From: an uncultured Desulfohalobiaceae bacterium
GTDB taxonomy: Bacteria > Desulfobacterota > Desulfovibrionia > Desulfovibrionales > CAZUBS01
DNA length: 64,000 nt
Direction of reading: 5' to 3'
NCBI GenBank assembly: GCA_964594925.1
Contig: CAZQOG010000001.1
Span: 3,239 to 67,238, forward strand
The notes beneath the pieces were generated by a model. The model saw only the letters and a program-made list of their open reading frames with translations. It had not been told where the DNA came from and did not search any database. This document shows positions 3,691 to 63,744 of the stretch, piece after piece (position 1 is the first letter of the stretch; the number at the start of each line of letters is the position of its first letter). Both the position numbers and the translations under genes were made by a program.

Positions 3691-3753
3691 CTCTTGCTTC
3701 CCCCCTTCGCATGAAGCTACGGAGGGCAGGCCAGCTTCCAGCTTCGAGCTTCA
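3691..3753 (-). repeat. heptad GAAGCTN element (family A)
   Basis: The sense (minus) strand reads TAA|TGAAGCTCGAAGCTGGAAGCTGGCCTGCCCTCCGTAGCTTCATGCGAAGGGGGGAAGCAAGAG directly after the epimerase stop. Near-identical sequence in + orientation at 28050-28103. Confidence 0.8.
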
Positions 3754-4779
3754 TTACAAATTCTCCCCATACCACCCGGCGGCACGCTCCAGTCCTTGGC
3801 GGACCGAGTACTGTGGCTCGTAGCCCAGGAGGTCGCTGGCCTTGGTGGTGTCGGCCAGGGAGTGGCGCACATCCCCCGGGCGAAAGTCGCGGTAGACGGG
3901 TTCCTGGGCCGCGGCCCCGGGGCGGCGGGCTGCGACCAGGTCGCGGATTATGGCGTAGAGTTCATTCAGGGTGGTGCGCTCGCCAAAGGCCACGTTGAAG
4001 ACCTGCCCGGCGGCCCGGGCATTGCTCGTGGTCGCGGCCAGGATGTTGGCCTGGACGCAGTTGTCCACGTAGCAGAAATCGCGGCTGGTTTCGCCGTCGC
4101 CGTTGATGTACACCTGCGCCCCGGTGAGCAGGCCCTTGAACCACTGGGGGATGACCGCGGCATAGGCCCCTTCCGGATCCTGGCGTGGCCCGAAGATGTT
4201 GAAGTAGCGCAGGCCGATGGGCTCGAACCCGTAGACCCGGCCAAAGACCTCGGCATAGAGCTCGTTGACCAGTTTGGTCACGGCGTAGGGGGAAAGGGGG
4301 CTGCCGATGCGCTCCTCCTGCTTGGGGAGCTCCGGGGAGTCGCCGTAGGTGGAGCTGGAAGCGGCGTAGACAAAACGCGTGACCCGGGCATCCCTGGCTG
4401 CGACCAGCATGTGCAGAAAACCTGAGATGTTGTTCTCGTTGGTGAACACCGGGTCGTCGATGGACCGGGGCACCGACCCGATGGCGGCCTGGTGCAGCAC
4501 GTAGTCCACCCCGGCGCAGGCCTCCCTGCAGGCCGAGGGGTCCCGGATGTCCGACTCCAGGAAGCGGAACCTCTCCCACTGCTGCGGGCTGACCAGCGAG
4601 CGCACCTGCTCCAGGTTGTGGGGGTGGCCCGTGGAAAAGTTGTCCATCCCGACCACGGGCTGGTCCATGAGCAGCAGCTTTTCCAGCAGATTGGACCCGA
4701 TAAACCCGGCCACCCCGGTCACGCACCAAGTGCGGGGGGTCTGGGCCAAGGCTCGCAGCGCAGTATCGTAGTTTGTCAT
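3754..4779 (-). CDS. NAD-dependent nucleotide-sugar 4-epimerase, TviC/WbpP-like (SDR family)
   Basis: 341 aa. Rossmann motif [12 protein letters not shown], catalytic YAVTK (YxxxK). N-terminal region typical of UDP-GlcNAc(A) 4-epimerases. Confidence 0.8.
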
Positions 4780-4895
4780 GGCTGGGGTAGTACGTTGTTG
4801 GTTGGGGTTAGTAAATGGGGGGTATTGGTTTATTGGTTTAGTGGTTGAATGGATTATTGGTTAAATGGGAAATTGGGTGAATGGGCTCTCTGATC
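4780..4895 (-). promoter_or_regulatory. G-depleted CCAAT/AACCA-rich 5' leader without Shine-Dalgarno
   Basis: The sense strand upstream of the ATG reads ...CCCAATTTCCCATTTAACCAATAATCCATTCAACCACTAAACCAATAAACCAATACCCCCC...CCCCAGCC-ATG. I count only about 2 G in about 107 nt. Similar leaders at 15149-15197, 17077-17105 and 25383-25446. Confidence 0.35.
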
Positions 4896-4898
4896 CGG

Positions 4899-4999
4899 TT
4901 ACGGTAGGGGCGCGTGGCACGCGCCCTTCTTTTGCCGAGGCTTGGCTTTGGCACGTTATTCCGGCCAAAAGCAGGGCGGTTGCCAACCGCCCCACCAGA
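4899..4999. repeat. REPIN-like element (family C): two GTAG/CTAC-flanked hairpins
   Basis: GGTAGGGGCGCGTGGCACGCGCCC ... GGGCGGTTGCCAACCGCCCCACCAGA. Two GC-rich hairpins in inverted orientation, with terminal GTAG...C(T)AC. Confidence 0.75.
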
Positions 5000-5035
5000 A
5001 AAAAACAGCACAAAGCTACGGAGGACAGACAATCC

Positions 5036-5120
5036 TGCCTCTTGCTTTCCTTCCGACTTCGAACTTCGAACTTTCTTGCTTTCAGCTTTGAGCTTTCAGC
5101 TTCCACTTTTAACCTTCCAG
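5036..5120 (-). repeat. heptad element (family A)
   Basis: Sense (minus) strand: GTGGAAGCTGAAAGCTCAAAGCTGAAAGCAAGAAAGTTCGAAGTTCGAAGTCGGAAGGAAAGCAAGAGG. Begins within a few nt of the stop of ORF 5126..6010. Confidence 0.8.
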
Positions 5121-5125
5121 CTGTC

Positions 5126-6010
5126 TTAGTAACCGTGCGCTAAGGTGCAGTCGAGCTTGGAGTGGTGTGGGGCTCGGTACTTGAGTGTGGGCTCGTGCAC
5201 TCGAAGTGGATGTGGCGGCCCTTGTCTGGACGGGGGAAGGAATACCTGCTCCCAGCACAGCCGGGTGGTGTCGACCATATCCAACTCCACGCCGTGGGCC
5301 AGGATGGTCTTGAGCTCGGTGGAGACAAAGAGCTCGCCTTTACCCCGCCCAAGGAACAAGGGCAGGCCGCGGCAGACCCACCACAACCGGTCTGTTCGGC
5401 GGCTGTGCAGGCATACCAGGGAGAACCTGCCCCGGACCCTTTCCAAGACGCTGTCCAGGGAACCTTCCAAATCGCCTGCCTGACCAAGTGCCCTGGCCAT
5501 GCGCCCGGCCAGGAAGCGTGCCTCCCCATGGGCAAGCCGCATATCCTTTAAATCCGGTGCGTCCCGCCGCAGGCCCAGCTCCTTCGGGTTGTCCACCCGA
5601 CCCCAGAATCCAACCGTGACTAACCCCTGCTCGTCCTGGCCCACACCCCCCTTCCAGGGCCCGAACTGGTCCTCGCAGCAGGTCCTGACCAACCCGAACC
5701 CGCTCCGGGCCCGTGAGCATCCATGGGGCACCAGCTCTTCCACAAGGGAGTTGAACGATCCGGACATCTTGACCGTGACCACCCCCCCGCTCCCTGCAAA
5801 AGCCACGCAACAGGCAACCTCCCCCTTTTCCTGCAGGCGCATCAGGTCCTGGAGCAGCACCGGCATTGCCGGGCGGTTTCCTGCATAGGCAACAAGCACC
5901 CCTGCTACCCCTCTTCCCTGGTCCGGGCTTCCAAAAAGCGCAGATAATTGGACAGCAGACCGGCGTATTGCTGGATTCTGAGGGAGGAGCTGTGTAGCAT
6001 CTTCCAACAC
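5126..6010 (-). CDS. hypothetical protein; weak resemblance to a class-II (Ntn) glutamine amidotransferase fold but without the N-terminal Cys
   Basis: 294-aa ORF (GTG start in track) with plausible GC3-rich codons. The segment GRFSLVCLHSRRTDRLWWVCRGLPLFLGRGKGELFVSTELKTIL resembles the RD-x-G-x-PL...SE motif of GATase-2 domains. No catalytic Cys seen. Several overlapping alternative ORFs. Confidence 0.4.
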   Translation of the reverse strand: MLEDATQLLPQNPAIRRSAVQLSALFGSPDQGRGVAGVLVAYAGNRPAMPVLLQDLMRLQEKGEVACCVAFAGSGGVVTVKMSGSFNSLVEELVPHGCSRARSGFGLVRTCCEDQFGPWKGGVGQDEQGLVTVGFWGRVDNPKELGLRRDAPDLKDMRLAHGEARFLAGRMARALGQAGDLEGSLDSVLERVRGRFSLVCLHSRRTDRLWWVCRGLPLFLGRGKGELFVSTELKTILAHGVELDMVDTTRLCWEQVFLPPSRQGPPHPLRVHEPTLKYRAPHHSKLDCTLAHGY

Positions 6011-6091
6011 TATCCAGCTGCCCGAGCTGCAGGCAACCTGATTTTCAAAAGGCGGGATTGGGTAGGGGTAAAGGTAGGGAAAAGTGCTGGT

Positions 6092-7342
6092 TCAGGTGGG
6101 TTGTTCACTCTCTCGGGTGTACCACTCGTAGGTCTCGGCAATGCCTTGGTGCAAGGGAATGGAGGCTTTCCAGCCCAGGGCGGTCAGGCGGGAGACGTCC
6201 AGGAGCTTGCGCGGGGTGCCGTCCGGCCTGGTGTGGTCCCAGACCACCTGCCCTCTATAGCCAACCACCTCGGCCACAAGGGAGGCGATGTCCATGATGG
6301 CGGCGTCTTTTCCCGTGCCGATGTTGAAGAGTGGCTGGCTGGACGAAGATGGTGAGGCGTGAGGCGTGAGGGGGGAGACAGGGGCGGGACGAGAAAAAAT
6401 TGTGTCCCGGGGCTGGGTCATGAGGAAACAGCAGGCATCTGCCAGATCGTCCACGTGCAGAAACTCACGTCTCGGGGCGCCGGTGCCCCAGAGCACGACC
6501 TTTGGAGAGCTGGAAGCTTGAAGCTGGAAGCTTGAAGCAAGAGATGAAGAACGTGAAATGTAGGTTTCTTCCCCTTGCCTTGATTCTTTCTCCTGCTTCA
6601 AACTTCGAACTTCGAACTTCGAACTCGATTCCTCTTGCTTCGAGCTTCCAGCTTCCAGCTTCGAGCTTCTTTCTATTCCCAACCCTTCCAGCACGTCGTC
6701 CGGGATGGGGCCGAAGCGTTGCTCGTCCCTGGCTACGGCGGCGAGGTCGCCATGCTGGGCCAGCTTGGCCAGATGGAACTTGCGCATCAGGGCGGGGAGG
6801 ACATGGGAGGTGCACAGGTCGAAGCTGTCCCCCGGGCCGTAGAGGTTGGTGGGCATGACCGGGATGTACTCGGTGTTGTGCTGCCTGTTGTAGGCCCAGC
6901 ACATCTCGATGCCCGCGATCTTGGCCACTGCATAGGCGCTGTTGGTGGCCTCCAGTGGACCGGTCATCAGGTGCTCCTCGCGCATGGGCTGGGGCGCCTC
7001 GCGCGGGTAGATGCAGGAGCTGCCGAGGAAGAGCAGCCGCTTCACCCCGTTCAGGAAGCTGTGGTGGATGACGTTGTCCTGGATCTGCAGGTTGGTGTGA
7101 ATGAAGTCGGCCGGATAGGTGGCATTGGCCAGGATCCCGCCCACCCTGGCCGCGGCCAGAAACACGTATTCGGGCTTCTCGGCGGCAAAAAAATCGGCCA
7201 CGGCCCGCTGATCGGTCAGGTCGAGTTCTCTGCTGGTCCGCAGAAGCAGGTTGTCATACCCCTCCGACCGAAGCCTACGCACCAAAGCCGACCCCACTAG
7301 GCCACGATGACCGGCTATGTAGATTTTGGAAGATAGATGCAT
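6092..7342 (-). CDS. fcl: GDP-L-fucose synthase (GDP-4-keto-6-deoxymannose 3,5-epimerase/4-reductase) carrying an in-frame repeat insertion
   Basis: 416 aa versus about 320 for E. coli Fcl. Collinear with Fcl: IYIAGHRGLVGSA, LAAARVGGILANATYPADFI, LFLGSSCIYP, YAVAKIAG, VMPTNLYGP, REFLHVDD, PDGTPRKLLDVSRL. About 57 extra residues (ERSSKLEAGSSKQEE...SSFQLQASSSP) are encoded by a heptad repeat element. Confidence 0.9.
   Translation of the reverse strand: MHLSSKIYIAGHRGLVGSALVRRLRSEGYDNLLLRTSRELDLTDQRAVADFFAAEKPEYVFLAAARVGGILANATYPADFIHTNLQIQDNVIHHSFLNGVKRLLFLGSSCIYPREAPQPMREEHLMTGPLEATNSAYAVAKIAGIEMCWAYNRQHNTEYIPVMPTNLYGPGDSFDLCTSHVLPALMRKFHLAKLAQHGDLAAVARDEQRFGPIPDDVLEGLGIERSSKLEAGSSKQEESSSKFEVRSLKQEKESRQGEETYISRSSSLASSFQLQASSSPKVVLWGTGAPRREFLHVDDLADACCFLMTQPRDTIFSRPAPVSPLTPHASPSSSSQPLFNIGTGKDAAIMDIASLVAEVVGYRGQVVWDHTRPDGTPRKLLDVSRLTALGWKASIPLHQGIAETYEWYTRESEQPT
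6505..6674. repeat. heptad hairpin element (family A) inside the fcl coding sequence
   Basis: Left arm 6505-6543 is GAGAGCTGGAAGCTTGAAGCTGGAAGCTTGAAGCAAGAG. Right arm 6631-6669 is its imperfect inverted copy. The centre contains (TTCGAAC)x3. No stop codon in the fcl frame. Confidence 0.85.
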
Positions 7343-7343
7343 T

Positions 7344-7963
7344 GTTTTATGTTTTAGGTTTTAGGTTTTAGGAAAGAATGAAAATTGTTTTATGTTTTAG
7401 GAAAGAGTGAGAGATGATTTTTTTTATGAGAATAAAATGTGTGATTAGGATTTTAGGTATGAGATGAGTGATTGGAGCTTGCCCGAAAGGATTTTGAGTT
7501 CTTTGATCATCTCCTGGGCCGAAGAACGTTTTATAAAACCAACATGATGGGCAATGTACATTTGGGTTCTAAGTTCTGCAGCCGAGCCCTTTGCTATATG
7601 GAGAAAACGAACAAAGTCAGCATTTGAGCCACGTTCAGATCCTTCCGCAATATTGGAAGCAATCGAAACAGATGCCCGAGTCATTTGATCCTTTAATCCG
7701 TAATCATTGCAATTACGAAGCATTCTATAGACTTGAACTGCTATACGAGTAGCACTTCTCCACACATCAAGATCTTCAAAAGAACCATAGGCCATGTCAC
7801 CAAACTCCTTCCCAACCTCAAATCACAACTCCAAGCCCTCCCAATATATAGTCAAAAAAATCACGCCCATAATACTCAAAAAAAAGATATTAAACCTCTG
7901 TTATTGACAAATCCCTTCTTTTCATTGCCTTTCACCTAAAACATAAAACCTAAAACCTAAAAC
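7344..7963. other. cassette bounded by inverted heptamer arrays (GTTTTAG)n ... (CTAAAAC)n, carrying a four-helix-bundle gene
   Basis: Left arm 7344-7372 is GTTTTAT(GTTTTAG)3G, with a second short array at 7387-7401. Right arm 7935-7963 is CCTAAAACATAAAACCTAAAACCTAAAAC. The arms are about 27/29 complementary. The cassette fills the gmd-fcl gap almost exactly. Confidence 0.7.
7445..7795 (-). CDS. four-helix-bundle protein (23S rRNA intervening-sequence protein / Avd-like family)
   Basis: 116 aa. FEDLDVWRSA...SIASNIAEGSERGS...FLHIAKGSAAELRTQ pattern characteristic of the TIGR02436-type family. Confidence 0.8.
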   Translation of the reverse strand: MAYGSFEDLDVWRSATRIAVQVYRMLRNCNDYGLKDQMTRASVSIASNIAEGSERGSNADFVRFLHIAKGSAAELRTQMYIAHHVGFIKRSSAQEMIKELKILSGKLQSLISYLKS

Positions 7964-7984
7964 ATCCCCCCACATTTCCCAACC

Positions 7985-9117: not shown

Positions 9118-9243
9118 GCAGTCCACGAATCTACACGAATGAAGAAATGAATTTTCACTAAAGAAGACCAGGTTTTTTCGCGAAGCCCCAGGACCTTATT
9201 CGTGTCAATTCGTGCAAATTCGTGAAAATTCGTGGTCCTGCCC
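9118..9243. repeat. inverted decamer-array element (family E), copy 1
   Basis: ATTCGTG at 9198, 9208, 9218 and 9228 (exact 10-bp phase). The inverse CACGAAT is at 9124 and 9134. Homologous element at 19343-19517. Fills the manC-gmd gap. Confidence 0.8.
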
Positions 9244-9251
9244 TTCTGCCT

Positions 9252-10667
9252 TTACTCCTCCAATCTCCCAAAATCATCCTCCAAACGCACAATATCGTCT
9301 TCTCCCAAATAGGAGCCGGACTGGACCTCGATCAGCTCCAGGGGGATCTTGCCCGGGTTTTCCAGGCGGTGCACCGCGCCCAGGGGGATGTAGACCGATT
9401 CATCCTCCTTGACCACCAGGGTTTCCTGGTCCCTGGTGACCTTGGCCGTGCCCGAGACCACCACCCAGTGCTCGGCCCGGTGGAAGTGCTTCTGCAGGGA
9501 CAGCTTGGCCCCGGGCTTGACCGTGATGCGCTTGACCTGGAAACGGTCCTCGGCGTCCACGCCCTCGAAGGAGCCCCAGGGGCGGTAGACGCGGCGGTGG
9601 AAGAGGTGCTCGCCCCTGCCGCACGAGGTCAGCTGCCGCACCAGCTCCTTGACCTCCTGCACCTTGTCCCTGGAGGCCACCAGGACCGCGTCCGGGGTCT
9701 CCACCACCACGTGGTTCGAGACACCGGTCACGGCCACCAGCCTGGAGGCGGCGTGGACATAGCAGTCCGTGACCTCGTGCACCAGGACGTCGCCGATGGT
9801 CACGTTGCCCGAGTCGTTCTTCTGCCCCACCTGCCACAGGGCCTCCCAGGAGCCAAGATCGTTCCAACCCGCTTCCAGGGGCAGCACCACCCCCTTGTCC
9901 GTCTTCTCCATGATGGCGTAGTCGATGGAGTCGCTTGGAGAACGCTCGAACCACTCCCGGTCCAGGCGCAGGAAGTCGAGATCCACTCTCCCTCGGGCCA
10001 GGGCTTCCCCGCAGGCCGCGAGCGTGTCCGGGGCGTGGGCCTGGTACTCATCGAGCAGGGTTTGGGCCCGGAACAAAAACATGCCGCTGTTCCAGAGGTA
10101 GCGGCCCGATTCCAGGTAGGAGCCGGCCGTGGCCCGGTCGGGCTTTTCCACGAAGCTGTCGATGCGACGCGCCCTGCCAGTAACGGGCTCCCCGAACCGG
10201 ATGTAGCCGTAGCCGGTCTCGGGTGTCCGGGGCACGATGCCGAAGGTGACCAGCAGCCCCTCCCCGGCCAGGGGGACGCCCTCCCGCACGCAGGAGATGA
10301 ATGCCGAGGCGTCCTCGATGTAGTGGTCTGCGGGCAGGACCAGGATGAGCGATTCCGGGTCCAGCTCGCGGGCCTTGAGCGCGGCCACGGCCACGGCCGG
10401 GGCGGTGTTGCGCACGGCCGGCTCCAGCAGGATGGCCGCGGGCTCCACCCCGGCTGTCCGGAGCTGCTCTGCCACCATGAAGCGGTGGTCCTCGTTGCAC
10501 AGCACCAGAGGCGCGTGGGTCCCGTCCAGCTCCTGCAGCCTGAGCACGGTCTCCTGCAGCATGGTGCGCTCGCCGGTGAAGGGGATGAGCTGCTTGGGGT
10601 AGTGCTTGCGGGACAGGGGCCACAACCGCGTGCCGGAACCCCCGGCCAGTATCACGGGAATGATCAT
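9252..10667 (-). CDS. manC: mannose-1-phosphate guanylyltransferase / mannose-6-phosphate isomerase (type II PMI-GMP)
   Basis: Track ORF trimmed to the ATG at 10667 (MIIPVILAGGSGTRLWPLSRKHYPKQL). C-terminal cupin (HRAEHWVVVSGTAKV). The upstream 53 codons are translated repeat sequence. Confidence 0.9.
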   Translation of the reverse strand: MIIPVILAGGSGTRLWPLSRKHYPKQLIPFTGERTMLQETVLRLQELDGTHAPLVLCNEDHRFMVAEQLRTAGVEPAAILLEPAVRNTAPAVAVAALKARELDPESLILVLPADHYIEDASAFISCVREGVPLAGEGLLVTFGIVPRTPETGYGYIRFGEPVTGRARRIDSFVEKPDRATAGSYLESGRYLWNSGMFLFRAQTLLDEYQAHAPDTLAACGEALARGRVDLDFLRLDREWFERSPSDSIDYAIMEKTDKGVVLPLEAGWNDLGSWEALWQVGQKNDSGNVTIGDVLVHEVTDCYVHAASRLVAVTGVSNHVVVETPDAVLVASRDKVQEVKELVRQLTSCGRGEHLFHRRVYRPWGSFEGVDAEDRFQVKRITVKPGAKLSLQKHFHRAEHWVVVSGTAKVTRDQETLVVKEDESVYIPLGAVHRLENPGKIPLELIEVQSGSYLGEDDIVRLEDDFGRLEE

Positions 10668-10747: not shown

Positions 10748-10972
10748 AAGAAGAGCTGGAAGCTGGAAGCTGGAAGCAAGAGAGTTCGAAGTTGGAAGTT
10801 CGAAGTCGGAAGGTAGGATAATGCAAGCTGAAAGCTCAAAGCTGAAAGCAAGAGAGTTCGAAGTTGGAAGTTCGAAGTCGGAAGGAAGGATAATGCAAGC
10901 TGAAAGCTCAAAGCTCAAAGCTGAAAGCAGGAGAGTTCGAAGTTGGAAGTTCGAAGTCGGAAGGTAGGAGAG
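10748..10972 (+). repeat. three tandem composite units (72 and 79 bp period) of heptad repeats
   Basis: The core AGTTCGAAGTTGGAAGTTCGAAGTCGGAAGG recurs at 10783, 10855 and 10934. Each is preceded by (R)AAGCTN heptads plus GCAAGAG and followed by TAGGATAATGCA. Confidence 0.85.
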
Positions 10973-14125: not shown

Positions 14126-14158
14126 GGAAATTCCTTAAAAGGATTGAGGTGGAGGTTG

Positions 14159-14301
14159 GTTTATGTTTTAGGTTTTAGGTTTTAGGTGAAGAGGATGTGG
14201 TAATGAGTTATGGTGGGAGCTGTTGCCCTTGCAATGAAAAAAAAATGAACCCATTCCACTGATTCCTCTTAACATAAAACATAAAACCTAAAACATAAAA
14301 C
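14159..14301. repeat. gene-less (GTTTTAG)n / (CTAAAAC)n hairpin element
   Basis: Left arm 14159-14186 is GTTTAT(GTTTTAG)3G followed by TGAAGAGG. Right arm CCTCTT + AACATAAAACATAAAACCTAAAACATAAAAC is at 14265-14301. Extra AAACATAAAACC at 14317-14328. Lies between the dehydrogenase start and the cysQ stop. Confidence 0.8.
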
Positions 14302-15148: not shown

Positions 15149-15197
15149 TGTTTTGATGCCGGTTATTTGATGATTGATTGGTTGATTGGGTGCAAGT

Positions 15198-15350
15198 GAT
15201 TTATGTTTTAGGTTTTAGGTTTTAGGTTTTAGGTTTTAGGTTGAAGAGGTTAGGGAGGTTGGAGGATAGTTTTCGCTTATTGTGAGGCAAGAGCGCTTTA
15301 AGCTGAAGGATCCTAAATCTCCTCTTTCCCTAAAACCTAAAACATAAAAC
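15198..15350. repeat. gene-less (GTTTTAG)n / (CTAAAAC)n hairpin element
   Basis: Left arm 15198-15240 is GATTTAT(GTTTTAG)5G followed by TTGAAGAGG. Right arm CCTCTTT + CCTAAAACCTAAAACATAAAAC is at 15321-15350. Lies between the cysQ start and the sat-cysC stop. Confidence 0.8.
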
Positions 15351-15357
15351 ATTCCCC

Positions 15358-18311: not shown

Positions 18312-18334
18312 AAAAATTTTTAGAGAAAAAATTT

Positions 18335-18495
18335 AAGTTCGAAGTTCGAAGTTCGAAGCAAAGGCAGAAAAATTTTTGATCCACGACTCTTCAATCTTCC
18401 TCCATCTATTCCCTTCGCGTCCTTCGCGATAAAATATCCCCTTTCACTCTTTCTTCTTCCTTCAAACTTCAGGCTTCGAACTTCGACCTTTCTTC
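18335..18495. repeat. heptad hairpin element (family A)
   Basis: (GAAGTTC)x3 at 18335-18359 and the inverted CTTCAAACTTCAGGCTTCGAACTTCGACC at 18457-18495. Lies in the intercistronic gap. Confidence 0.7.
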
Positions 18496-19536: not shown

Positions 19537-19567
19537 CCCTTCCAGCTTCCAGCTTCGAACTTCGAAC
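19537..19567 (-). repeat. short heptad element (family A)
   Basis: The sense (minus) strand reads TAG GGGATA GTTCGAAGTTCGAAGCTGGAAGCTGGAAGGG, starting 6 nt after the PCP stop. Confidence 0.75.
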
Positions 19568-19573
19568 TATCCC

Positions 19574-25135: not shown

Positions 25136-25165
25136 CAGCCCGTTGAAAAATCCCCGCTGGACTCG

Positions 25166-25305
25166 TTGAAGCTGGAAGCTCGAAGCTCGAAGCTTGAAGC
25201 AAGAGAGGAAGTTCGAAGCTCGAAGTCGGAAGCTGGAAGCAAACCAGGAAGAACAAATACAATTTGGGAACTCGATTCTTTTCTTTCCTTCGAACTTCGA
25301 ACTTA
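25166..25305 (+). repeat. 140-bp heptad element (family A) with a unique core
   Basis: TTGAAGCTGGAAGCTCGAAGCTCGAAGCTTGAAGCAAGAGAGGAAGTTCGAAGCTCGAAGTCGGAAGCTGGAAGCAAACCAGGAAGAACAAATACAAT...CTTCGAACTTCGAAC. A copy about 90 percent similar (aligned by eye) lies in reverse orientation at 44779-44915. Confidence 0.85.
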
Positions 25306-25382
25306 ACCTCCACCCACAGTGTCTGGCGATAAAGGACAACGGCAGGCTGCGTGTAACCGGTTGTAGTAGGGGCACCCGTTCC

Positions 25383-26866: not shown

Positions 26867-28015
26867 ATGGTCCTCAGCCAGCCCGTCTCCTTGCTCCTGG
26901 TCTCCATGGCCGCCGCGGTCCTGCCCTGGATCAGCCGCTGGCTCCGTGTCCCGTCCGTGGTCATGGAAATCCTGTTCGGGGTGGTGCTCGGCAAGAGTTT
27001 GCTCCAGCTGCAACTCGGCGGGGAGTGGATGCCGATCCTGGCCGAGCTGGGCTTTTTGCTGCTCATGTTCCACTCCGGCATGGAGATCAACTTCAACATG
27101 CTCCTCGCGCAGAGCCGGCGAAATCTCCTGGTCCAGCTGGGCATATTCGCCGCCACCCTGGCCATGGCCGTGGGTGTGGCCGTTCTGATCGGCCGGGGCG
27201 TTTTCCTGGCCCTGGTGCTCTCCACCACCTCCCTGGGCCTGGTCATGCCCACCCTCAAGGAGGCAGGGCTCTCCCGGACCGCCACGGGCCAGTCCGTGCT
27301 GGTGGCGGCCACCCTGGCCGACTTCCTGACCCTGTTCGGCATCACCATGTTCCTGCTCTGGAACGACAGCGGGCTGAGCCTGCAGCTTTTGACCCCCTTC
27401 CCCCTGTTTCTGGGCTTCGGGGTCCTGCTCTGGGCGGGCAGGCTCTGGGCCTGGTGGCACCCTCGCCAGGCCGGCCGTTTTCTGGGTCCCTCGGACAGCC
27501 AGGAGATCGGGGTCCGCTACTCCCTGGCCCTGCTGTTTTTGTTCGTGGCCCTGTCGGAGCTGGTGCACATGGAGCCCGTGCTCGGCGCCTTCATGGGCGG
27601 CTGCGTCATCGCCTTTGTGTTCCGGGGGAAGATCGACCTGGAAGGCAAGATCTCCGTCCTGGGATTCGGCTTCCTGATCCCCATCTTCTTCATCCACGTG
27701 GGCATGCAGTTCGACGTGGCTTCCCTGCTCAGCCCGGGCCAGATCCTGTTCACCCTGGTGCTGCTGGCGGCCGCCCTGGCGGTCAAGATCGTGCCCGCCC
27801 TGCTCTTCGTGCTGCTCCGGATGCCCCTGCGCGCCGCCCTGCGCAACGGGATCCTGCTCTCCTCCCGGTTGAGCCTCATCGTGGCAGCAGCCTCCATCGG
27901 GCTGGAGCAGGGCTTCCTGGACCAGCCCACCAAGGACGCCGTCGTCTTCCTGGCCCTCCTGACCTGCTTCCTCGGCCCGACCCTGTTCAAGCTTTTGAAG
28001 GAGAAAAGAAGCTAG
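26867..28015 (+). CDS. cation:proton antiporter (CPA2 / Kef-type Na+/H+ exchanger family)
   Basis: 382 aa polytopic membrane protein. ILAELGFLLLMFHSGMEIN motif. Starts 5 nt after the RCK/Usp gene. Confidence 0.8.
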   Translation: MVLSQPVSLLLVSMAAAVLPWISRWLRVPSVVMEILFGVVLGKSLLQLQLGGEWMPILAELGFLLLMFHSGMEINFNMLLAQSRRNLLVQLGIFAATLAMAVGVAVLIGRGVFLALVLSTTSLGLVMPTLKEAGLSRTATGQSVLVAATLADFLTLFGITMFLLWNDSGLSLQLLTPFPLFLGFGVLLWAGRLWAWWHPRQAGRFLGPSDSQEIGVRYSLALLFLFVALSELVHMEPVLGAFMGGCVIAFVFRGKIDLEGKISVLGFGFLIPIFFIHVGMQFDVASLLSPGQILFTLVLLAAALAVKIVPALLFVLLRMPLRAALRNGILLSSRLSLIVAAASIGLEQGFLDQPTKDAVVFLALLTCFLGPTLFKLLKEKRS

Positions 28016-28132
28016 AAGCTGGAAGCTCGAAGCTCGAAGCTCGAAGCTAGAAGCTGGAAGCTGGCCTGCCCTCCGTAGCTTCATGCGAAGGGGGGAAGCA
28101 AGAGAATTTGAAGTTCGAAGCTGGAAGCTGGC
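28008..28132 (+). repeat. heptad element (family A): 8 perfectly phased GAAGCTN units, then GGCCTGCCCTCCGTAGCTTCATGCGAAGGGGGGAAGCAAGAG and a second short run
   Basis: GAAGCT at 28008, 28015, 28022, 28029, 28036, 28043, 28050 and 28057. The antiporter stop TAG (28013-28015) lies inside the first units. Confidence 0.9.
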
Positions 28133-34700: not shown

Positions 34701-36060
34701 CCCGGAGCCGGGCAGCTATCGCCTGCAACTCCCCCTGACCTGGAGCCTCTTCCCCTGGACCCTTGAAATGCGCCGCAACCAAGCGATTTCCGGGTATCTG
34801 CGCTCAGCCCTGCGGCTGGATGCGGTCTCCGAGGCCCTGGCCCTGGACGACCAGTTCTTTGACGGCACGGCCAGTGTCGACATCACCCTGGCCGGCACCT
34901 GGTCCGGGCCGGAATTGTCCGGGGGGGGCGACCTGACTGGTGGAAGCTATGAAAACATCGCCTCGGGGACAGCCATCTCCAGCATAAGCGGCAGCTTGTC
35001 CTCCCTGCGGGACAACACCTTCGCGGTCGACCTGAGCGGTTCCGGTCCGGGAGGCGGCCGGGTCGAGCTGACCGGAACCCTGGGCGTGCCCCCCCTGAGC
35101 CCGCTGCACTACGACCTGCGTGCGGAAGTGGAGCAGGCCCGGCTTGTCCAGCGCGACCGGCTCCAAAGCACGGCCACCGGGACCATGCGGGTCGATGGTG
35201 ATGCCCAGGGGCTGAGCCTGAGCGGAAGGCTGACCCTGGACCCGTCAGAGCTGCGCCTGCGAAGCGGTACACCGGACATGGTCTCCATCCCCATCGAGGA
35301 GGTCAATGTTGACGACAGGCACACCTCGCCGGATCAGGACGGATCCGGCTTTGTAAGCCGCCTGGATGTAGCCCTGGAGTTTCCCGCCCGGCTCTCCGTG
35401 CGCGGACGGGGGCTTGACTCGGAATGGCGGGGAAAGCTGTCCGCAGGTGGAACCGCAGACCGGCCCGAGCTCCGAGGGCGCCTGCAGGTGGTCCGGGGCA
35501 CCTACACCTTTCTCGGGGAACGCTTCCAGCTCGACCAGGGCAGCATCACATTTGACGGCGCTTCCCCCCCCAACCCACTGGTGGACCTGACTGCCATCAA
35601 CCGTGATAACGGCTTCGAGGCCCGGGTCCTGCTGTCGGGGCAGCCCGACAATCTCACGGTGACCCTGGAGTCCGATCCCGCCCTTCCCCGGGACGAAATC
35701 CTGGCCCGGGTCCTTTTCGGCCGCTCCGTGTCCGAGCTTTCACCCCTGCAGGCCCTCAAGCTGGCCCAGACCGTGGGGCAGCTGACCGGGAGGGATACGG
35801 GGCCCGACGTGCTGGGCGAGACCAGGGAGTTCCTGGGGGTGGACGAGCTCGAGATAGGCCAGGGCGCGGCCGGCGGCACGACCCTGGGCATCGGGACCTA
35901 CATCCACGAGGACATCTACATCAAGGGCGAAAAAGGCCTTGACCCCGAGGACGACGCAATCTCCGTGGAGATCGAGATCACCCCCAACATCGGCCTGGAA
36001 ACAGAGGTCGGCGGCTCCGGCCGCAGCGGCGTGGAGCTGTTCTGGAAGAAGGATTATTGA
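31720..36060 (+). CDS. tamB: translocation and assembly module inner-membrane subunit TamB (DUF490 C-terminus)
   Basis: 1446 aa. N-terminal TM anchor, long beta-rich repetitive body. C-terminal ...TLGIGTYIHEDIYIKGEKG...IEITPNIGLETEVG motif typical of TamB. Confidence 0.85.
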   Translation: MSKRRLLRRILRAAGLSLAATMLILGGMFAFLQTDMGQLFLARWLSASLSSPGASVSIQGLGGTFPWSLRVLSIEVADDQGSWLTADNLYLQLKPGELLHGRAHLPLIQLDKLNLHRLPEGHDRAEPSETATLPSLNLPPLDIDHLAVASLVIHEPLARQQLQLSITGSTNLAGPTSTARLTAASLQGPETNLQGRFQLSRDDPGGLLVDVSYFEAPGGLLGTALPQTSQNASLKLDLNGQGPLRDWQGSYSIACGDLVRSRGDLHLDGLDSARLTVDGQMTLEASLLPPWLRQEPGPDGTFRLVLSRAKDGAVLLNSLRLEGGGSKLALQGDVDLTRGVLQAQFSLRTPLAAELLDRAADIDVQGLTRFSGSLKGSFEEPILAVAAPARALRFQDVGIEDAGVEATLHVRPSGPRAGLKVNATIQARQAELPGFTSPLSPVSLDLSGSTADFTTLHLERVVLKERTAMVTARGDLNLDSRNVNARVELRDLALERLSGMAATGLHGGLDLDLDLSGSLDQPLLNLTLEGAVTDLGGVPKEASPMIGDHISLDGGGSLRGSRLQVDSLQVSGLSTLSLNGTVDVASNAFDLEYAIASGDPAPLLASTPVSMDAPPQFHGTLQGTDGDFTLKLVAETPLLAVAGRELHSPALSFELSSLPETGFTGRAGLRADFQGRPLTGSLDLQLPGKELLLNNILLRSGSTELQGSATISTGPYMVQAKARLLAPDLSLWEDLVPLDGPAGSLDAALRARFDRTLQMDMEGEIVGLSLARTSIKQASFELSGENLLADPEFTTTVQAREMRWKHALLPSTRLTLSGTPNRIGFTGSLSALAPMRGSLDLSGQVERRESGTLLTLDNLQGRADRVDFALDGPADIRFAPGSLTIRDLALHTDHGLLNLEGTADEDALDVRAVMEDLDPALFSALAGLPLEGRISGKATLTGEADAPLLQADFSGRDLQVASGRIGQLSPFDMTAALRMTGRQTDIQGTISGFDPEPGSYRLQLPLTWSLFPWTLEMRRNQAISGYLRSALRLDAVSEALALDDQFFDGTASVDITLAGTWSGPELSGGGDLTGGSYENIASGTAISSISGSLSSLRDNTFAVDLSGSGPGGGRVELTGTLGVPPLSPLHYDLRAEVEQARLVQRDRLQSTATGTMRVDGDAQGLSLSGRLTLDPSELRLRSGTPDMVSIPIEEVNVDDRHTSPDQDGSGFVSRLDVALEFPARLSVRGRGLDSEWRGKLSAGGTADRPELRGRLQVVRGTYTFLGERFQLDQGSITFDGASPPNPLVDLTAINRDNGFEARVLLSGQPDNLTVTLESDPALPRDEILARVLFGRSVSELSPLQALKLAQTVGQLTGRDTGPDVLGETREFLGVDELEIGQGAAGGTTLGIGTYIHEDIYIKGEKGLDPEDDAISVEIEITPNIGLETEVGGSGRSGVELFWKKDY

Positions 36061-36133
36061 AGCTGGAAGCTCGAAGCTGGAAGCTGGAAGCAAGAAATAT
36101 TGGAGCTGGAAGCTGGAAGCTGGAAGCAAGAGG
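36059..36133 (+). repeat. heptad element (family A), two runs
   Basis: The tamB stop TGA (36058-36060) overlaps the first GAAGCT. Units at 36059, 36066, 36073, 36080 and 36087; second run 36102-36132. Confidence 0.85.
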
Positions 36134-36310: not shown

Positions 36311-37264
36311 CTATTCTTCTTCTTGCTTCAAGCTTCCAGCTTCCAGCTTCGAGCTTGCATCTTCTCTTCTAAAGCTTCTCGGATGGGCCTGGTCGTAGAC
36401 CGTGGTGATCCTGGACAGGGTGAGGTGGGTGTAACGCTGGGTGGTTGCGAGCCGGGAGTGGCCCAGAAGCTCCTGAACGCTTCGAAGGTCCGCCCCTGAC
36501 TCGAGCATGTGGGTGGCGAAGCTGTGCCGCAGGGTGTGCGGGCTGACGTCCTGGGGCAGGCCTGCGGCCCTGGAGAGCCGCTCCACGATGCGGTTGGCCT
36601 CCCGGCGCTGCAGGCGACCCCCCCGCATGCCCAAAAACAGGGCCCGCTGCCCCGGAGGCGGTGAAAAGGCACCCCGCACGTCCAGGTAGCGCAGCAACCG
36701 CTCCCTGGCCGCCCTGGTCAGCAGGGCGATCCTCTCCTTGCCCCCTTTGCCCTGGACACGGGTCACCCCCTCGCCCAAGTCGATGTCCACCACATCCAGG
36801 CCCAGGGCCTCGCTGATGCGCAGCCCCGATCCGTAGAGCAGCTCGGCCAGGGCCAGGTCGCGGCAGCCGCGGGGGCCCGCCTCGACGGACGCCTCCATCA
36901 GGGACAGGGCCTGATCGACATTGAGGGCCCTGGGATGGCGGCTCTCCTGCTTGGGGTTGGAGGTGCCCGAGCTTGGGTCTTTGCGCAGCAGCTTGCGTCG
37001 ACGGCAGTACCCGAAAAAGGAGCGGGCCGCGGAAAGCTTGCGCGCCATGGTGGACCTGCGCAGCCCCCGGCGGTGCATCTCCCCCAGATAGCCCCGCAGG
37101 TGGTCCCGCTGCACCGCGGAGGGGGTTTTCAGGCTCAGCCCGTGGCGCTTGAGAAAGCTCTCCAGCTGCTCCAGGTCGCGGCCGTAGGCCGTGACCGTAG
37201 CCGGGGAGTAGCCCTTCTCCACCTCGAGCCAGGCCAGGAAATCTTTGACCGGGTCACGGGGCAT
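36311..37264 (-). CDS. tyrosine site-specific recombinase XerC/XerD family, with a repeat-encoded C-terminal tail
   Basis: 317 aa. N-terminal SAM-like core-binding domain. Catalytic HTLRHSFATHML...LLGHSRLATTQRYTH. After the usual ...YDQAHPR end, the ORF runs on about 20 codons (SFRREDASSKLEAGSLKQEEE) into heptad repeats at 36311-36356. Confidence 0.85.
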   Translation of the reverse strand: MPRDPVKDFLAWLEVEKGYSPATVTAYGRDLEQLESFLKRHGLSLKTPSAVQRDHLRGYLGEMHRRGLRRSTMARKLSAARSFFGYCRRRKLLRKDPSSGTSNPKQESRHPRALNVDQALSLMEASVEAGPRGCRDLALAELLYGSGLRISEALGLDVVDIDLGEGVTRVQGKGGKERIALLTRAARERLLRYLDVRGAFSPPPGQRALFLGMRGGRLQRREANRIVERLSRAAGLPQDVSPHTLRHSFATHMLESGADLRSVQELLGHSRLATTQRYTHLTLSRITTVYDQAHPRSFRREDASSKLEAGSLKQEEE

Positions 37265-44531: not shown

Positions 44532-44974
44532 GGAGTCCCCTGTAACGGCATCAGAGCGTCCTCTTCCCTTCTTCGAACTTTCTTGCTTCCAGCTTCCAGC
44601 TTCGAGCTTCCAGCTGTAACGCAGCCCCCCCTTCGCACAAGACTACGGAGGGCAGGCCAGCGGGGATGTTTCAACGGCCCGCTACCCCAGCCAACCCATC
44701 GTACAAGGCAGGGCACGTGCAACGTGCCCCTACAACCCAATGCAAAATTCTCCCACCAGGGAACAAGTTCGAAGTCGGAAGTTTGAAGTTCGAAGGAAAG
44801 AAAAGAATCGAGTTCCCATTGTATTTATTCTTCCTGGTTTGCTTCCAGCTTCCGACTTCGAGCTTCGAACTTCTTCCCTTGCTTCCAGCTTCCAGCTTCG
44901 AGCTTCCAGCTTCAATTTACGTGAGGGTTTGCCCTTGGGGAAGCAACGCAGTCCAGCGGGGATTTTTCAACGGC
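44532..44974. repeat. 443-bp intercistronic repeat island between cheY and cheA
   Basis: Made of a family A run (44561-44615), CTACGGAGGGCAGGCC module, family B fragment, half-REP plus shared 74-bp block (44705-44778), 140-bp family A element (44779-44915) and a family B fragment (44917-44974). Confidence 0.85.
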
Positions 44975-57525: not shown

Positions 57526-57559
57526 TTGCTTCCAGCTTCCAGCTCCCAGCTTCGAGCTC
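57526..57559 (-). repeat. short heptad element (family A) in the relA 3' region
   Basis: The sense (minus) strand reads TAG CGCGCTTTGCGCGCA GAGCTCGAAGCTGGGAGCTGGAAGCTGGAAGCAA. Confidence 0.75.
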
Positions 57560-57574
57560 TGCGCGCAAAGCGCG

Positions 57575-63200: not shown

Positions 63201-63437
63201 ATCCACTACGACCCCTGGTGGAACCCGGCCGTGGAAAGCCAGGCCACCGACCGCACCCACCGTATCGGGCAGACCAGGAAGGTCTTCTCCTACAAAATGA
63301 TCTGCGAGAACACCGTGGAGGAGAAGATCCTCAAGCTCCAGGAGCAGAAGCGCGGCGTGGCCGAGGCCATCATCCCGGGCACCGACCACTGGAAATCCAT
63401 CACCCGCAACGACCTGGAGATGCTGTTCGACGTGTGA
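60219..63437 (+). CDS. SNF2-family helicase with N-terminal SWIM zinc finger
   Basis: ATG at 60219 (MNISDTTQV; track ORF starts at 60138). SWIM CNCPDSFSGVCRHVGA. Motif I LADEMGLGKTVQ, motif II ILDEAQNIKN, motif VI QATDRTHRIGQ. Confidence 0.9.
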   Translation: MNISDTTQVRELLKNFVHDSIPEYILDGSHQIVSHDGVQKVDLKERDHFLDIDGRIQAEDFQVYNSEIGVNLSDGTVNFYCNCPDSFSGVCRHVGATAIKLLNSLESEDATGTAPKPRTDWRQNFRSFFATAPEPEPGNHYLIYRFYPEPERLQVAFFRARQNKTGLSSVQNEVSLEQIVRNPDWSEMAPGLPQVLESIGQHNDYYGHRIEIPPGLLTWFFWTIKDEFYLFWEESEQPLRIVSNTMRLQVKPQLSEDGLSFDIMLGREGKVPFSIGGEEVFFFGTMPLWVCWKHAFYPVQTSLGSKLVQELVQDSPIIPHGEISEFLDRVWTKIPSSDLFGQEEFLERMQPIFVPARFNPKLFLDEEGSLLTLEIQCVYETEHGEVTLPGPNPDLQTGSYHFEGKPFLLRREQERESELLTKLMDMDFQPRNNAIWFLETEEAITFLLDHYPTLVQDYRVYGEQNLTRYKVRLTPPTIVANVESDKEEGGKWFDLDLAVEYDDIRVPIDKIWKAWTQGKRYVQLKDGSYTSLPESWLKKLGHKLEAMGLDPEKPVKSRFKQYEAPLLDKLLEDLPEVHTDSFWNELREKIHTFETIRQLKPPKGLDASLRGYQQQGLNFLNFLREYNFGGILADEMGLGKTVQTLAFLQHMVEKGQGGPNLIVVPTSVLPNWEREGQKFVPGLKRLVIYGSRREHLFDEIPGSDLIITTYALLRRDLDDLLKHEFNTVILDEAQNIKNPNTITARSVRKLNARFRLCLSGTPIENNLLELWSLFEFLMPGFLGSQNAFQKGFVKPIRDGDQESLEYLRLRVKPFILRRTKNEVAKDLPPKVENVYYSALIDEQKELYSLLANRLKEQVLRDVEQRGISQSQMSILDALLKLRQICCHPRLLKLDIPGVSTNLPSGKFEAFKDLVTGIIEDRQHKVLVFSQFVQMLKIIRSWLQLSNIPFSYLDGASKDRIEQVDQFNTNPDIPIFLISLKAGGTGLNLTAADYVIHYDPWWNPAVESQATDRTHRIGQTRKVFSYKMICENTVEEKILKLQEQKRGVAEAIIPGTDHWKSITRNDLEMLFDV

Positions 63438-63438
63438 A

Positions 63439-63473
63439 GAAGCTCGAAGCTGGAAGCTCGAAGCTGGAAGCAA
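63439..63473 (+). repeat. heptad element (family A)
   Basis: GAAGCT at 63439, 63446, 63453 and 63460, then GAAGCAAGAGG. Starts 2 nt after the helicase stop TGA (63435-63437). Confidence 0.85.
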
Positions 63474-63494
63474 GAGGGTTTTGAAGATTCTGAT

Positions 63495-63524
63495 TCTGGT
63501 AGGGGCGCGTGGTACGCGCCCTTC
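63495..63524. repeat. single REP hairpin (half of a family C REPIN)
   Basis: TCTGGTAGGGGCGCGTGGTACGCGCCCTTC. Confidence 0.7.
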
Positions 63525-63585
63525 TTCGACGGAATGACGGTCCCAGCAAGAAACCAGTTTACCAGCGGATCACGTACAAATGCGC

Positions 63586-63620
63586 AAAAAAAATGCCGGG
63601 AATTTCTCCGGCATTTTTTA
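63586..63620. terminator. bidirectional intrinsic terminator between the helicase gene and ssb
   Basis: A8-TGCCGG-GAATTTCT-CCGGCA-T6ATTT. Confidence 0.7.
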
Positions 63621-63633
63621 TTTGAATTTGTTT

Positions 63634-63744
63634 TGAACTTTCTTGCTTCAAGCTTCCAGCTTGCTTTATCCTTCCTTACGACTTCGAACTTCGAACTTCG
63701 AACTTTCTTACTTTGAGCTTTGAGCTTTCAGCTTTGAGCTTTCT
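63634..63744 (-). repeat. heptad element (family A) abutting the ssb stop
   Basis: The sense (minus) strand reads TGA|AGAAAGCTCAAAGCTGAAAGCTCAAAGCTCAAAGTAAGAAAGTTCGAAGTTCGAAGTTCGAAGTCGTAAGGAAGGATAAAGCAAGCTGGAAGCTTGAAGCAAGAAAG. Confidence 0.85.

Follow-up and report, generated by a model that had tools for sequence, protein, structure and literature searches.

What are the runs of phased 7-nt units, GAAGCTN and GAAGTTC, that recur at gene ends in an uncultured Desulfohalobiaceae bacterium, and how did they come to face the direction of transcription? The question is raised by 64,000 nt of contig CAZQOG010000001.1 (NCBI GenBank assembly GCA_964594925.1, positions 3,239 to 67,238 of the forward strand), called the window here, in which an earlier note, made from the letters alone, had listed 15 such loci (H elements in the following). 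The answer that is favored here, with moderate confidence, is that the runs are gene-less members, either solo 5' arms or arm-loop-arm hairpins, of heptad-armed intercistronic cassettes that resemble the intervening sequence (IVS) of 23S rRNA. Read in order, such a cassette would comprise, when complete, a stop codon that the first heptad abuts or provides, a purine-rich heptad array, a GCAAGAGG-like ribosome-binding region, a small open reading frame (ORF) of the PF05635 family, the complementary heptad array, and the next gene. The gene-less GAAGCTN versions have multiplied at gene 3' ends in this genome, and the copies of the window may descend from PF05635 cassettes or share machinery with them.

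Heptad arrays of the window

Period-7 runs are present at all 15 listed loci, as found with Tandem Repeats Finder (TRF) and with a custom period-7 scan. The word GAAGCTNGAAGCTNGAAGC has 38 matches with at most one mismatch (0.00 in 100 dinucleotide-preserving shuffles), its GAAGTTC version GAAGTTCGAAGTTCGAAG has 26 with at most two mismatches (0.00 in shuffles), and the junction GAAGCAAGAG occurs exactly 8 times, when 0.25 occurrences are expected from shuffles. The arrays are 2-8 units long, with modes at 3.7 and 4.7 units. At the N of GAAGCTN, 47 of 53 units have a G or a C (p=1.5e-5 when compared with base composition), and units with G or C at this position are free of stop codons in all six frames. 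The order that recurs is TGA, (GAAGCTN)~4, GAAGCAAGAG(G), (GAAGTTC)~3, a loop and, optionally, one or more complementary arms. Within the window, 13 of the 15 loci are intergenic and the remaining two overlap ORFs (fcl and xerC). In unit size, dispersed copies, proximity to an upstream stop and inverted pairs, the elements have the properties of the class of heptameric dispersed intergenic repeats.

The runs are copies of a dispersed mosaic repeat family and not independent products of slippage, because the dispersed copies share 63-139 nt, including sequence that is not heptad-periodic. The segment 25166-25304 and the reverse complement of 44779-44915 are 94% identical over 139 nt, non-heptad parts included, and 3690-3752 is 98% identical to the reverse complement of 28043-28105. 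A 72-nt module is triplicated at 10754-10969. The elements are the following.

3690..3753 (minus): H element, TGA-(GAAGCTN)3, nested 30-nt module, GAAGCAAGAG; directly 3' of the TAA of a tviC-like epimerase gene
5036..5122 (minus): H element, (AAAGCTN)3-GCAAGAA-(GAAGTTC)3; 23 nt past the stop of a GATase-like gene
6503..6672 (minus): full H hairpin within the fcl ORF, (GAAGCTN)4-GAAGCAAGAGG-(GAAGTTC)3-loop-CTCTTGC-(NAGCTTC)4
10748..10972 (plus): H locus in the divergent gap between manC and a tyrosine-kinase-like gene; 72-nt module three times in tandem, consisting of a heptad array, GCAAGAG, a GAAGTTC array and GGATAATGCA (TRF period 72, 2.9 copies, 90%)
18333..18495 (minus): GAAGTTC-type H hairpin between cistrons of the XrtA/PEP-CTERM operon; 5' arm 27 nt past the stop
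19537..19570 (minus): solo H array, GAAGTTC units and then GAAGCTG units; 11 nt past the TAG of the chain-length determinant gene
25164..25306 (plus): H element of ~140 nt, TGA-(GAAGCTN)4-GAAGCAAGAG-second array-loop-(CGAACTT)2; 33 nt past a response-regulator stop, with a fragment of the repeat family Y ahead of it
28005..28132 (plus): H element with 8 heptads, the second of which forms the CPA2 TAG; nested 30-nt module as in 3690-3753
36057..36133 (plus): H arrays, (GAAGCTN)4-GCAAGAA and then (GAAGCTG)3-GAAGCAAGAG; the tamB TGA is T plus the GA of the first unit
36311..36366 (minus): H array that forms the last ~15 codons of xerC (ASSKLEAGSLKQEEE) and its stop; inverted partner of 36057-36133 across the convergent gap
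44561..44620 (minus): solo H array in the cheY-cheA spacer
44765..44917 (minus): H element of ~140 nt, sister of 25164-25306; 62 nt past the cheY stop, with a family-Y copy ahead of it
57526..57560 (minus): solo H array of 4 units, 15 nt past the relA/spoT stop
63437..63477 (plus): solo H array; the helicase TGA and then directly AGAAGCTC
63634..63744 (minus): H element, (AAAGCTN)4-(GAAGTTC)3 and more units; directly 3' of the TGA of an SSB-like gene

The nested module of ~30 nt (CCTGCCCTCCGTAGCTTCATGCGAAGGGGGG, a small hairpin) lies within heptad arrays, past the final GAAGCTG unit and ahead of GAAGCAAGAG, and is found at 3701-3731, 28064-28094, 44620-44655 and 5010-5035; it looks like an insertion within an insertion. 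The genes around the elements, as mapped with NCBIfam and Pfam, form an XrtA/PEP-CTERM exopolysaccharide cluster on the minus strand and, on the plus strand, a TrkA-like gene, CPA2, mutY, tamA and tamB. The map also has xerC, a chemotaxis cluster, relA/spoT, a Snf2 helicase gene and the 3' end of an SSB-like gene. The best named matches of RelA are those of a Desulfohalobiaceae metagenome-assembled genome (84%) and of Desulfohalobium retbaense (70%), within the Desulfovibrionales and Desulfohalobiaceae.

A PF05635 cassette in the GTTTTAG family

The architecture with an internal gene is present in the window in a second heptad family, GTTTTAG (T), which has three inverted pairs.

7343..7964 (minus): T cassette, (GTTTTAG)4, PF05635 ORF 7445-7795, (CCTAAAA)4; between the gmd stop and the fcl start
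14157..14301 (minus): empty T hairpin with an 84-nt loop, between cysQ and a tviB-like gene
15197..15352 (minus): empty T hairpin with an 87-nt loop; 5' arm 6 nt past the sat/cysC stop

The paired arms are 7963-7934/7372-7343, 14301-14271/14187-14157 and 15352-15329/15242-15197, and in all three the G/T-rich arm is the 5' arm on the sense strand. The minus-strand ORF 7445-7795 encodes a four-helix-bundle protein of the 23S rRNA intervening-sequence type (PF05635/TIGR02436, E=1.8e-33), and the 3' arm of its cassette abuts the fcl ATG. The T cassette is a foreign insert; its GC content is 37%, as compared with 62% for the window, and it is missing from the related contig L121, where the short spacer at this site carries CCTCACG heptads. 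An internal PF05635 ORF, as in an IVS, is thus seen in the T cassette and in none of the GAAGCTN elements of the window. The window holds no rRNA, so that insertion in 23S rRNA helix 25/45 has no counterpart here; all elements are in mRNA spacers or ORFs.

Homologues of the T-cassette protein, with 63-70% identity, are encoded in contigs of Contendobacter, Syntrophobacteraceae, Desulfosarcina and Smithella. In all four lineages the gene is co-directional between cistrons (of polysaccharide operons and of a type I-E cas operon), and all homologues are flanked by inverted heptad arrays of 30-49 nt with 86-98% complementarity; the arms of L138, for example, are (GTTTTAA)6 and (CTTAAAA)6, with 98% complementarity over 49 nt. 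On the 5' side, the arm reaches up to the upstream stop or overlaps it, and the TAA of L138 and L140 lies within the GTTTTAA heptad. In L138, L140 and L143 the next ATG follows 8-10 nt after the 3' arm, with no obvious Shine-Dalgarno sequence.

PF05635 cassette loci: L138 1445-1899; L140 1362-1902; L143 1454-1891; L144-L147; L013, L020, L038, L058, L088

At the loci examined in unrelated bacteria, the PF05635 genes are consistently promoterless intercistronic inserts between complementary heptad arrays, and the first heptad often includes the stop of the gene upstream. In contig L148 (702-1882, with L149-L157) a TviC-like epimerase is in two fragments, an N-terminal one of 162 residues and a C-terminal one of 94 residues; between them is a PF05635 gene whose 3' arm is CCTAAAW, and a second PF05635 gene is just upstream. 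A coding gene appears to have been broken in two, or replaced in part, by this cassette. In another unrelated organism (L122) a PF05635 gene lies between gmd and fcl, and this gmd has a sub-threshold match to LAGLIDADG_3 (intein-type).

GAAGCTN arrays and PF05635 genes in other bacteria

The GAAGCTN heptad itself is also associated with PF05635 genes. The array (GAAGCTN)3-GAAGC, when searched in one genome per species, is found at at least 119 loci in many phyla, and a profile hidden Markov model of PF05635 homologues was run on all ORFs of 119 loci that had been picked solely for their GAAGCTN arrays. PF05635 genes are present in 5 of these 119 loci, and in four of the five (L013, L088, L038 and L058) the seed array is less than 25 nt away or at most at that distance; by a rough estimate, such adjacency arises by chance with p<1e-4. 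In L013 and L088 the upstream TAG overlaps the first heptad, and (GAAGCTN)7-11, a GGAGG-like site, the ORF and a near-complementary heptad array follow, whereas in L038 and L020 the 5' arms are of the GAAGCTN type and the 3' arms are AAGCTTC. In L020 the PF05635 gene is preceded by GAAGCTT...GAAGCAAAGAGGATCAAGGATG. Since GAAGCAAAGAGGATCAAGGATG resembles the GAAGCAAGAGGAATC of the window, this comparison suggests that the GCAAGAG(G) junction is the ribosome-binding region of a cassette gene. The placement next to stop codons is also shared: in the other phyla, 35 arrays are within -12 to +6 nt of a stop, as compared with 5 at a start, which makes nearness to a stop characteristic of the class as a whole.

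Orientation, stop codons and position in transcripts

In 12 of the 12 elements that can be scored, the sense strand carries the GAAG-rich array or, in hairpin forms, a 5' arm rich in GAAG (one-sided p=2.4e-4), in agreement with the polarity described in the earlier note. The locus 10748-10972 was excluded from this score, being in a divergent gap, and each convergent gap was scored once, because the "flipped" arrays in it may be two arms of one inverted repeat. For the same gaps (tamB/xerC and helicase/ssb) the polarity had been said to flip in the middle to follow each gene; the flip is seen, but a single inverted repeat with its two arms would account for it just as well.

The five stop codons that had been reported to overlap or directly precede a first heptad are exact on re-checking. 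They are the CPA2 TAG at 28013-28015, the tamB TGA at 36058-36060 and the helicase TGA at 63435-63437, and, on the minus strand, the tviC-like TAA at 3754-3756, after which TGAAGCT follows at once, and the ssb-like TGA at 63745-63747. In four of the five the stop is made by the element's own unit (TGA+AGCT in tamB, TGA+AGAAGCT in the helicase gene, TGA+AGAAAGCT in the ssb-like gene and GCTAG in CPA2), and T(G/A)(A/G) is the start of half of all elements. The elements beyond these five are mostly 11-33 nt past a stop. Most elements are offset by -7 to +33 nt from the stop, and the next start is 57-270 nt away. The SSB-like gene has its native tail (...DDVPF and the stop) intact ahead of the 63634..63744 element.

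A scan for terminators yields two convincing sites (63588-63619 and 57071-57097), both of them intrinsic and bidirectional and both outside the elements. The relA-side array is ~430 nt upstream of the latter and the helicase-side array is between the stop and the former; with terminators beyond them, these elements are therefore in 3' untranslated regions (UTRs). The other elements are in intercistronic spacers. A position inside transcription units, as supposed in the earlier note, is borne out, from stop to predicted terminator or between cistrons. In its own minus sense, the element 63634..63744 comes shortly downstream of the bidirectional terminator 63588-63619, and there is no array-side terminator before it.

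The elements are not intrinsic terminators themselves, as the arrays have no T tract and the sole match of the terminator scan inside an element is a weak 6-pair site (63649-63663). Avoidance of Rho loading, in which the C-poor strand is the one transcribed first, is attractive as the cause of the polarity of the H and T families. Three observations weaken this idea: family Y is mostly in sense orientation despite its C-rich sense strand, the polarity holds at five gene ends that have no downstream cistron, and no polarity is seen across phyla.

Insertion in coding sequences and variation among close relatives

Two elements reach into coding sequence. In fcl the NCBIfam GDP-L-fucose synthase match is split (residues 5-199 and 337-412 of 416), and the H hairpin is in frame and free of stops. 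It adds ~58 residues to a surface loop, and homologues have only a short loop at this place. In xerC the XerC profile match ends at residue 297 of 317, and the H array codes for ~15 C-terminal residues beyond the end of the profile.

The fcl gene has further heptads. CCTCACG, three times, is a second in-frame fcl insertion, present in the window (6352-6371) and in L121 (396-415; also 1241-1265). L122 carries the heptads GGGAGAT and CCTCAGT (4388-4409, 5773-5796 and 6507-6536), and its fcl has an insertion of ~100 residues in the same loop.

Three contigs of close relatives share synteny with the window, L124 and L125 with ~95% identity and L121 with 82-95%, a value that varies from block to block. 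The fcl of L121 is without ~135 nt of the H hairpin (window ~6533-6667), and an AAGCT direct repeat is present at the indel. Spacers of 642 and 346 nt in the window are ~93 and 43 nt in L121, the second pair being the 5036..5122 locus. The relA-side array has 4 units in the window, as compared with 6 units and an intact GAAGTTC array in L125, and in L124 an unrelated family-Y repeat is found at this site in place of the heptad array. The window, L124 and L125 share the site of the helicase-side element, but all four units are GAAGCTN in the window and AAAGCTN in L124 and L125, and the helicase stop is TGA in the window and TAA in the other two. This concerted difference points to array-wide conversion or replacement and not to independent point mutation. 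The element 28005..28132 is identical in Logan contig L001. The composite GAAGCTN-GAAGCTN-GAAGCAAGAG has 11 metagenome matches, none from this lineage.

RNA folding

The proposal that inverted copies give long hairpins holds for two of the elements. The fcl hairpin 6503-6672 has a minimum free energy of -73 kcal/mol (z=-5.9 when compared with shuffles), and the hairpin 18346-18495 has z=-2.9. At 25164-25308 and 44776-44917, stems are also predicted, but they are not more stable than those of shuffled sequences (z=-0.95 and +0.28). The same arrangement of arms spans both convergent gaps. Arm duplex energies range from -26 to -78 kcal/mol (the H pairs in fcl, at 18k, 25k and 44k and in the 36k and 63k gaps, and T1-T3 of the T family), and the paired arms reach the stem length of an IVS (at least ~20-28 bp), whereas the solo arrays 3690, 19537, 44561 and 57526 have no partner.

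The solo arrays fold at the level of shuffles (z=-0.2 to -0.6; +1.3 for 5036-5122), so that the serial AGCU-NNN-AGCU mini-hairpins suggested in the earlier note do not exceed the background. Recognition of exposed GGA by a CsrA-type protein, suggested together with them, finds no support either, because of these z-scores and because GGA is not conserved: it is confined to units with N=G and is absent from the AAAGCTN arrays of the window and from the all-AAAGCTN orthologous array of L124 and L125. An element of the CsrB/RsmZ type, acting as sponge or leader, was likewise rejected, as there is no conserved GGA in the hairpin loops and no Rfam match. When the whole window was compared with Rfam, at the gathering threshold and at E<=1, only a tRNA-Pro and three chance-level matches were obtained.

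Weighing of the explanations

If the H elements are gene-less cassettes, their polarity and stop adjacency would be signatures of insertion and tolerance, and the elements would be selfish, having no dedicated host function. Where both arms are present, a stem of 25-40 bp would loop the insert out of the mRNA. The looped insert is probably a substrate of RNase III, by analogy with the IVS of 23S rRNA, and looping-out may preserve the expression of the operon.

Several observations weigh against this explanation. The counts from the window cover 64 kb of the genome. No PF05635 remnants are detectable in the GAAGCTN elements of the window or in their loops; with no GAAGCTN copy here that bears a gene, the link of these elements to the cassettes rests on the shared heptad, the junction motif and the architecture. 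The hairpin in fcl would be costly if RNase III really cut there. The L058 cassette has its arms in the reverse order. Between co-directional genes of other phyla, as judged with crude GC-frame gene calls, GAAGCTN arrays are 25 times in sense and 23 times in antisense orientation; strict polarity is therefore a property of the family in this lineage and not of the heptad. The duplex energies of 20 arm pairs, when sense is compared with antisense, scatter around zero with a slight antisense lean, and without a folding advantage of the sense strand no G-U signature of selection on the RNA is seen. By inspection, neither a target-site duplication nor a classical terminal inverted repeat is present at the ends of 25166-25304 and 44779-44915.

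The last observation also bears on the fallback of the earlier note, a miniature inverted-repeat transposable element (MITE) with a preference for gene 3' ends. That preference is close to the conclusion drawn here, but the terminal inverted repeats and target-site duplication of such an element are not found, and a MITE of a DDE transposon was rejected, since two copies that are 94% identical have no duplicated flank and non-matching termini.

The elements might instead be selected by the host, as stabilizers or processing signals in 3' UTRs and between cistrons, resembling the repetitive extragenic palindromes (REPs) and bacterial interspersed mosaic elements (BIMEs) and kept for a benefit to expression. 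This is unlikely, although the location inside transcription units ahead of terminators, the strict sense polarity, the high stability of the hairpin forms and the retention of the helicase-side element at one site in three relatives all agree with it. It is opposed by the free variation in presence and absence, with unrelated repeats at the same site in relatives, by solo arrays whose structure does not go beyond composition, by arm pairs that fold no better in sense than in antisense, and by the insertions in fcl and at the xerC 3' end, which look like selfish spread. A role as folded-DNA recombination sites is less probable still. These would be single-stranded hairpins of the attC or REP kind, recognized by a tyrosine recombinase or a Y1 transposase and serving as landing pads that capture and release the PF05635 cassette. 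It would account for arm complementarity that is equal on both strands, for the lack of target-site duplication, for the coexistence of empty and filled hairpins of the same heptad, and for cassettes that are promoterless and co-oriented, like integron cassettes. However, no recombinase is associated with the cassettes at any examined locus, the xerC of the window is an ordinary chromosomal gene, and a polarity relative to transcription is not needed at the DNA level.

That the arrays are plain simple sequence repeats (SSRs), each arising locally and independently by slippage, with no mobility and no relation to cassettes, is very improbable and is largely refuted by the dispersed homologous copies. 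In its favor, the unit number differs between relatives (4 and 6), GAAGCTN arrays occur in many phyla, and heptanucleotides are the commonest long SSR class in many bacteria according to the summary of Mrazek 2007 given in PMC4679880. But successive units differ at N, copies have non-heptad flanks and junctions in common over 63-139 nt, the GAAGCAAGAG end recurs 8 times where 0.25 are expected, the polarity is 12 of 12, and arrays adjoin PF05635 genes elsewhere. The least credible explanation is a periodic platform for a protein, either CsrA on GGA loops or a ring-shaped or multi-domain RNA binder that reads one NAG per 7 nt. HutP, for comparison, reads UAG-N4 repeats. The strict 7-nt phasing, the invariant AAG/AGC core, the typical number of ~4 units and the sense strand that is always purine-rich would fit such a platform. 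GGA is lost, however, in AAAGCTN arrays, in units with N=C and in the concerted G-to-A change of the relatives, the mini-hairpins have chance stability with no Csr/Rsm-like match in Rfam, and no candidate binder is encoded nearby apart from the PF05635 protein, which is a candidate. When taken together, these points leave the gene-less heptad-armed cassette as the preferred explanation.

Other repeats of the window

Further repeat families are found next to the elements or elsewhere in the window.

Family Y (dispersed, CCGTTGAAAAATCCCCGCTGGACTGCGTTGCTTCCCCAAGGG): 3503-3558, 25140-25163, 44652-44679, 44918-44976, 47264-47283, 47395-47448, 47529-47587; in L124, 6017-6060
Family X (palindromic, 100-140 nt): 4903-5003, 11025-11152, 29485-29649, 41665-41802, 47055-47202, 63483-63527

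Family Y, with its C-rich sense strand, is in sense orientation in 6 of 7 copies in the window (7 of 8 with the L124 copy) and lies between a stop codon and a heptad element at two loci. Family X has a terminator-like hairpin (GGGGCGCGTGGCACGCGCCCC and then a T-rich tail) and a mixed orientation relative to genes; it adjoins an H module in the same order at 4903-5118 and 10884-11124. The minus-strand ORF 47067-47450 (127 residues) is probably not a gene, because it consists largely of family X and Y copies and has no family match. In the ORF 2998-3675 (225 residues) only residues 80-182 match a Pol-beta-type nucleotidyltransferase, and the N-terminal part overlaps a family-Y copy. A ATTCGTGAAA decamer array is present 3' of manC (9198-9260) and of the chain-length determinant gene (19473-19535), the two being 87-91% identical. 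A 74-nt unit with a GGGCACGTGCAACGTGCCCC hairpin is present at 44705-44778 and 46942-47014 (97% identical), with fragments upstream of mutY (28191-28285).

Comparison with known systems

Among the long simple repeats of many bacterial genomes, tandem heptamers are the most over-represented; we know of no agreed function or origin for them, the puzzle having stood since 1990. The PF05635 proteins form a very large family for which we know of no role outside diversity-generating retroelements. If true, the link between heptads and PF05635 would explain both, as a selfish intercistronic cassette and its debris, and heptad-armed gene cassettes elsewhere may help explain the long-puzzling 7-base repeats of bacteria. 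A tentative and rather doubtful extension is that the dispersed bacterial heptamers (the short tandemly repeated repetitive sequences (STRRs), GGGAATC of Xanthomonas, H4 of Geobacter and TAACTGA of Beggiatoaceae) are largely arms or orphan arms of one pan-bacterial mobile PF05635 (Avd-like) cassette. This cassette would insert precisely at the stop/start junctions of operons, bring its own stop and be looped or cut out of the mRNA; its pentameric protein might recognize the heptads. The elements also matter for annotation: genes take their stops from them, reading frames are lengthened or broken up in frame (fcl, xerC), and spurious ORFs can result (possibly 47067-47450), so that gene and pseudogene calls in such genomes need care.

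The earlier note did not recognize the repeats as a described family. This is correct for the exact family, which is not found in the searchable literature, where the literal heptad strings gave no papers, but not for the class, as heptameric repeats near stop codons have been described (PMC4692102, PMC4679880, PMC2700814). Papers that link operon heptamer repeats to PF05635 genes were not found in the one library searched. The GAAGCTN/GAAGTTC family and its link to a cassette thus appear new, whereas the heptamer class itself is known.

Mosaic extragenic palindromes of the REP and BIME type occupy gene 3' ends and intercistronic spacers, vary between strains, are co-transcribed and can stabilize the upstream mRNA. 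A REP is one imperfect palindrome, 20-40 nt long, that has a conserved 5' tetranucleotide and is mobilized by a RAYT transposase. The location of the H elements is alike, but their heptad periodicity differs from this single-palindrome form, and no RAYT-like ORF is present among the annotated genes of the window. Rickettsia palindromic elements, reportedly described by Ogata in 2000, are said to be selfish palindromic repeats that insert in frame into protein genes and are tolerated in surface loops. The insertion in the surface loop of fcl (6503-6672) is alike, but the Rickettsia elements are not heptad-periodic, are unrelated in sequence and have no reported preference for stops.

The cyanobacterial STRR heptanucleotides are said to go back to Mazel in 1990. 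The TAACTGA heptamers of Beggiatoaceae (MacGregor 2015) are tandem arrays of 2-6 units, intergenic and gene-oriented, mostly just upstream of starts and with one inverted pair (PMC4679880). Both resemble the H arrays in being short, intergenic and gene-oriented, and in a patchy distribution across phyla that suggests horizontal spread; TAACTGA, however, is mostly ahead of start codons, whereas H arrays follow stops and often have inverted partners. In Geobacter metallireducens (Aklujkar 2009), which likewise belongs broadly to the Desulfobacterota, four tandem heptamers are found per site, with 49 intergenic and intragenic copies, and other classes consist of paired sites on opposite strands at variable distance (PMC2700814). 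The Geobacter units differ (GGACCGG, MTYCTGA) and are read as regulator-binding sites or regulatory RNAs, with no analysis of stops or polarity.

The GGGAATC heptamers of Xanthomonas and GGGGAYT heptamers of Nostoc (Rehm et al. 2015) prefer ~4 units, have many dispersed intergenic copies and are of unknown function. They are much nearer to the upstream ORF, and of the copies downstream of an ORF that are within 50 bp of its stop or overlap it, most are on the sense strand; inverted pairs are frequent and most copies are transcribed (PMC4692102). The likeness to the H elements thus extends to the 7-nt unit, the ~4 units, the stop adjacency and the inverted pairs. In contrast, the Xanthomonas and Nostoc units can form G-quadruplexes, which GAAGCTN cannot, and neither a mosaic structure (a GCAAGAG junction and a second GAAGTTC array) nor a PF05635 link is reported for them. 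The Xanthomonas heptamers are, moreover, about equally distributed over the two strands between co-directional genes, unlike the uniformly sense elements of the window. A close parallel in architecture is the 23S rRNA IVS of Coxiella, which combines an S23p (PF05635) ORF, a terminal inverted-repeat stem of 28 bp that is cut by RNase III, and, in the stem region, tandem heptamers in variable number (PMC4990558). The IVS is located in helix 25/45 of 23S rRNA, whereas the window elements are between or inside protein-coding cistrons, those of the GAAGCTN type without an ORF; yet in Coxiella and Leptospira it is a selfish element that is excised by RNase III (PMC4990558), and its parts match those of the T cassette and of the cassettes in other phyla.

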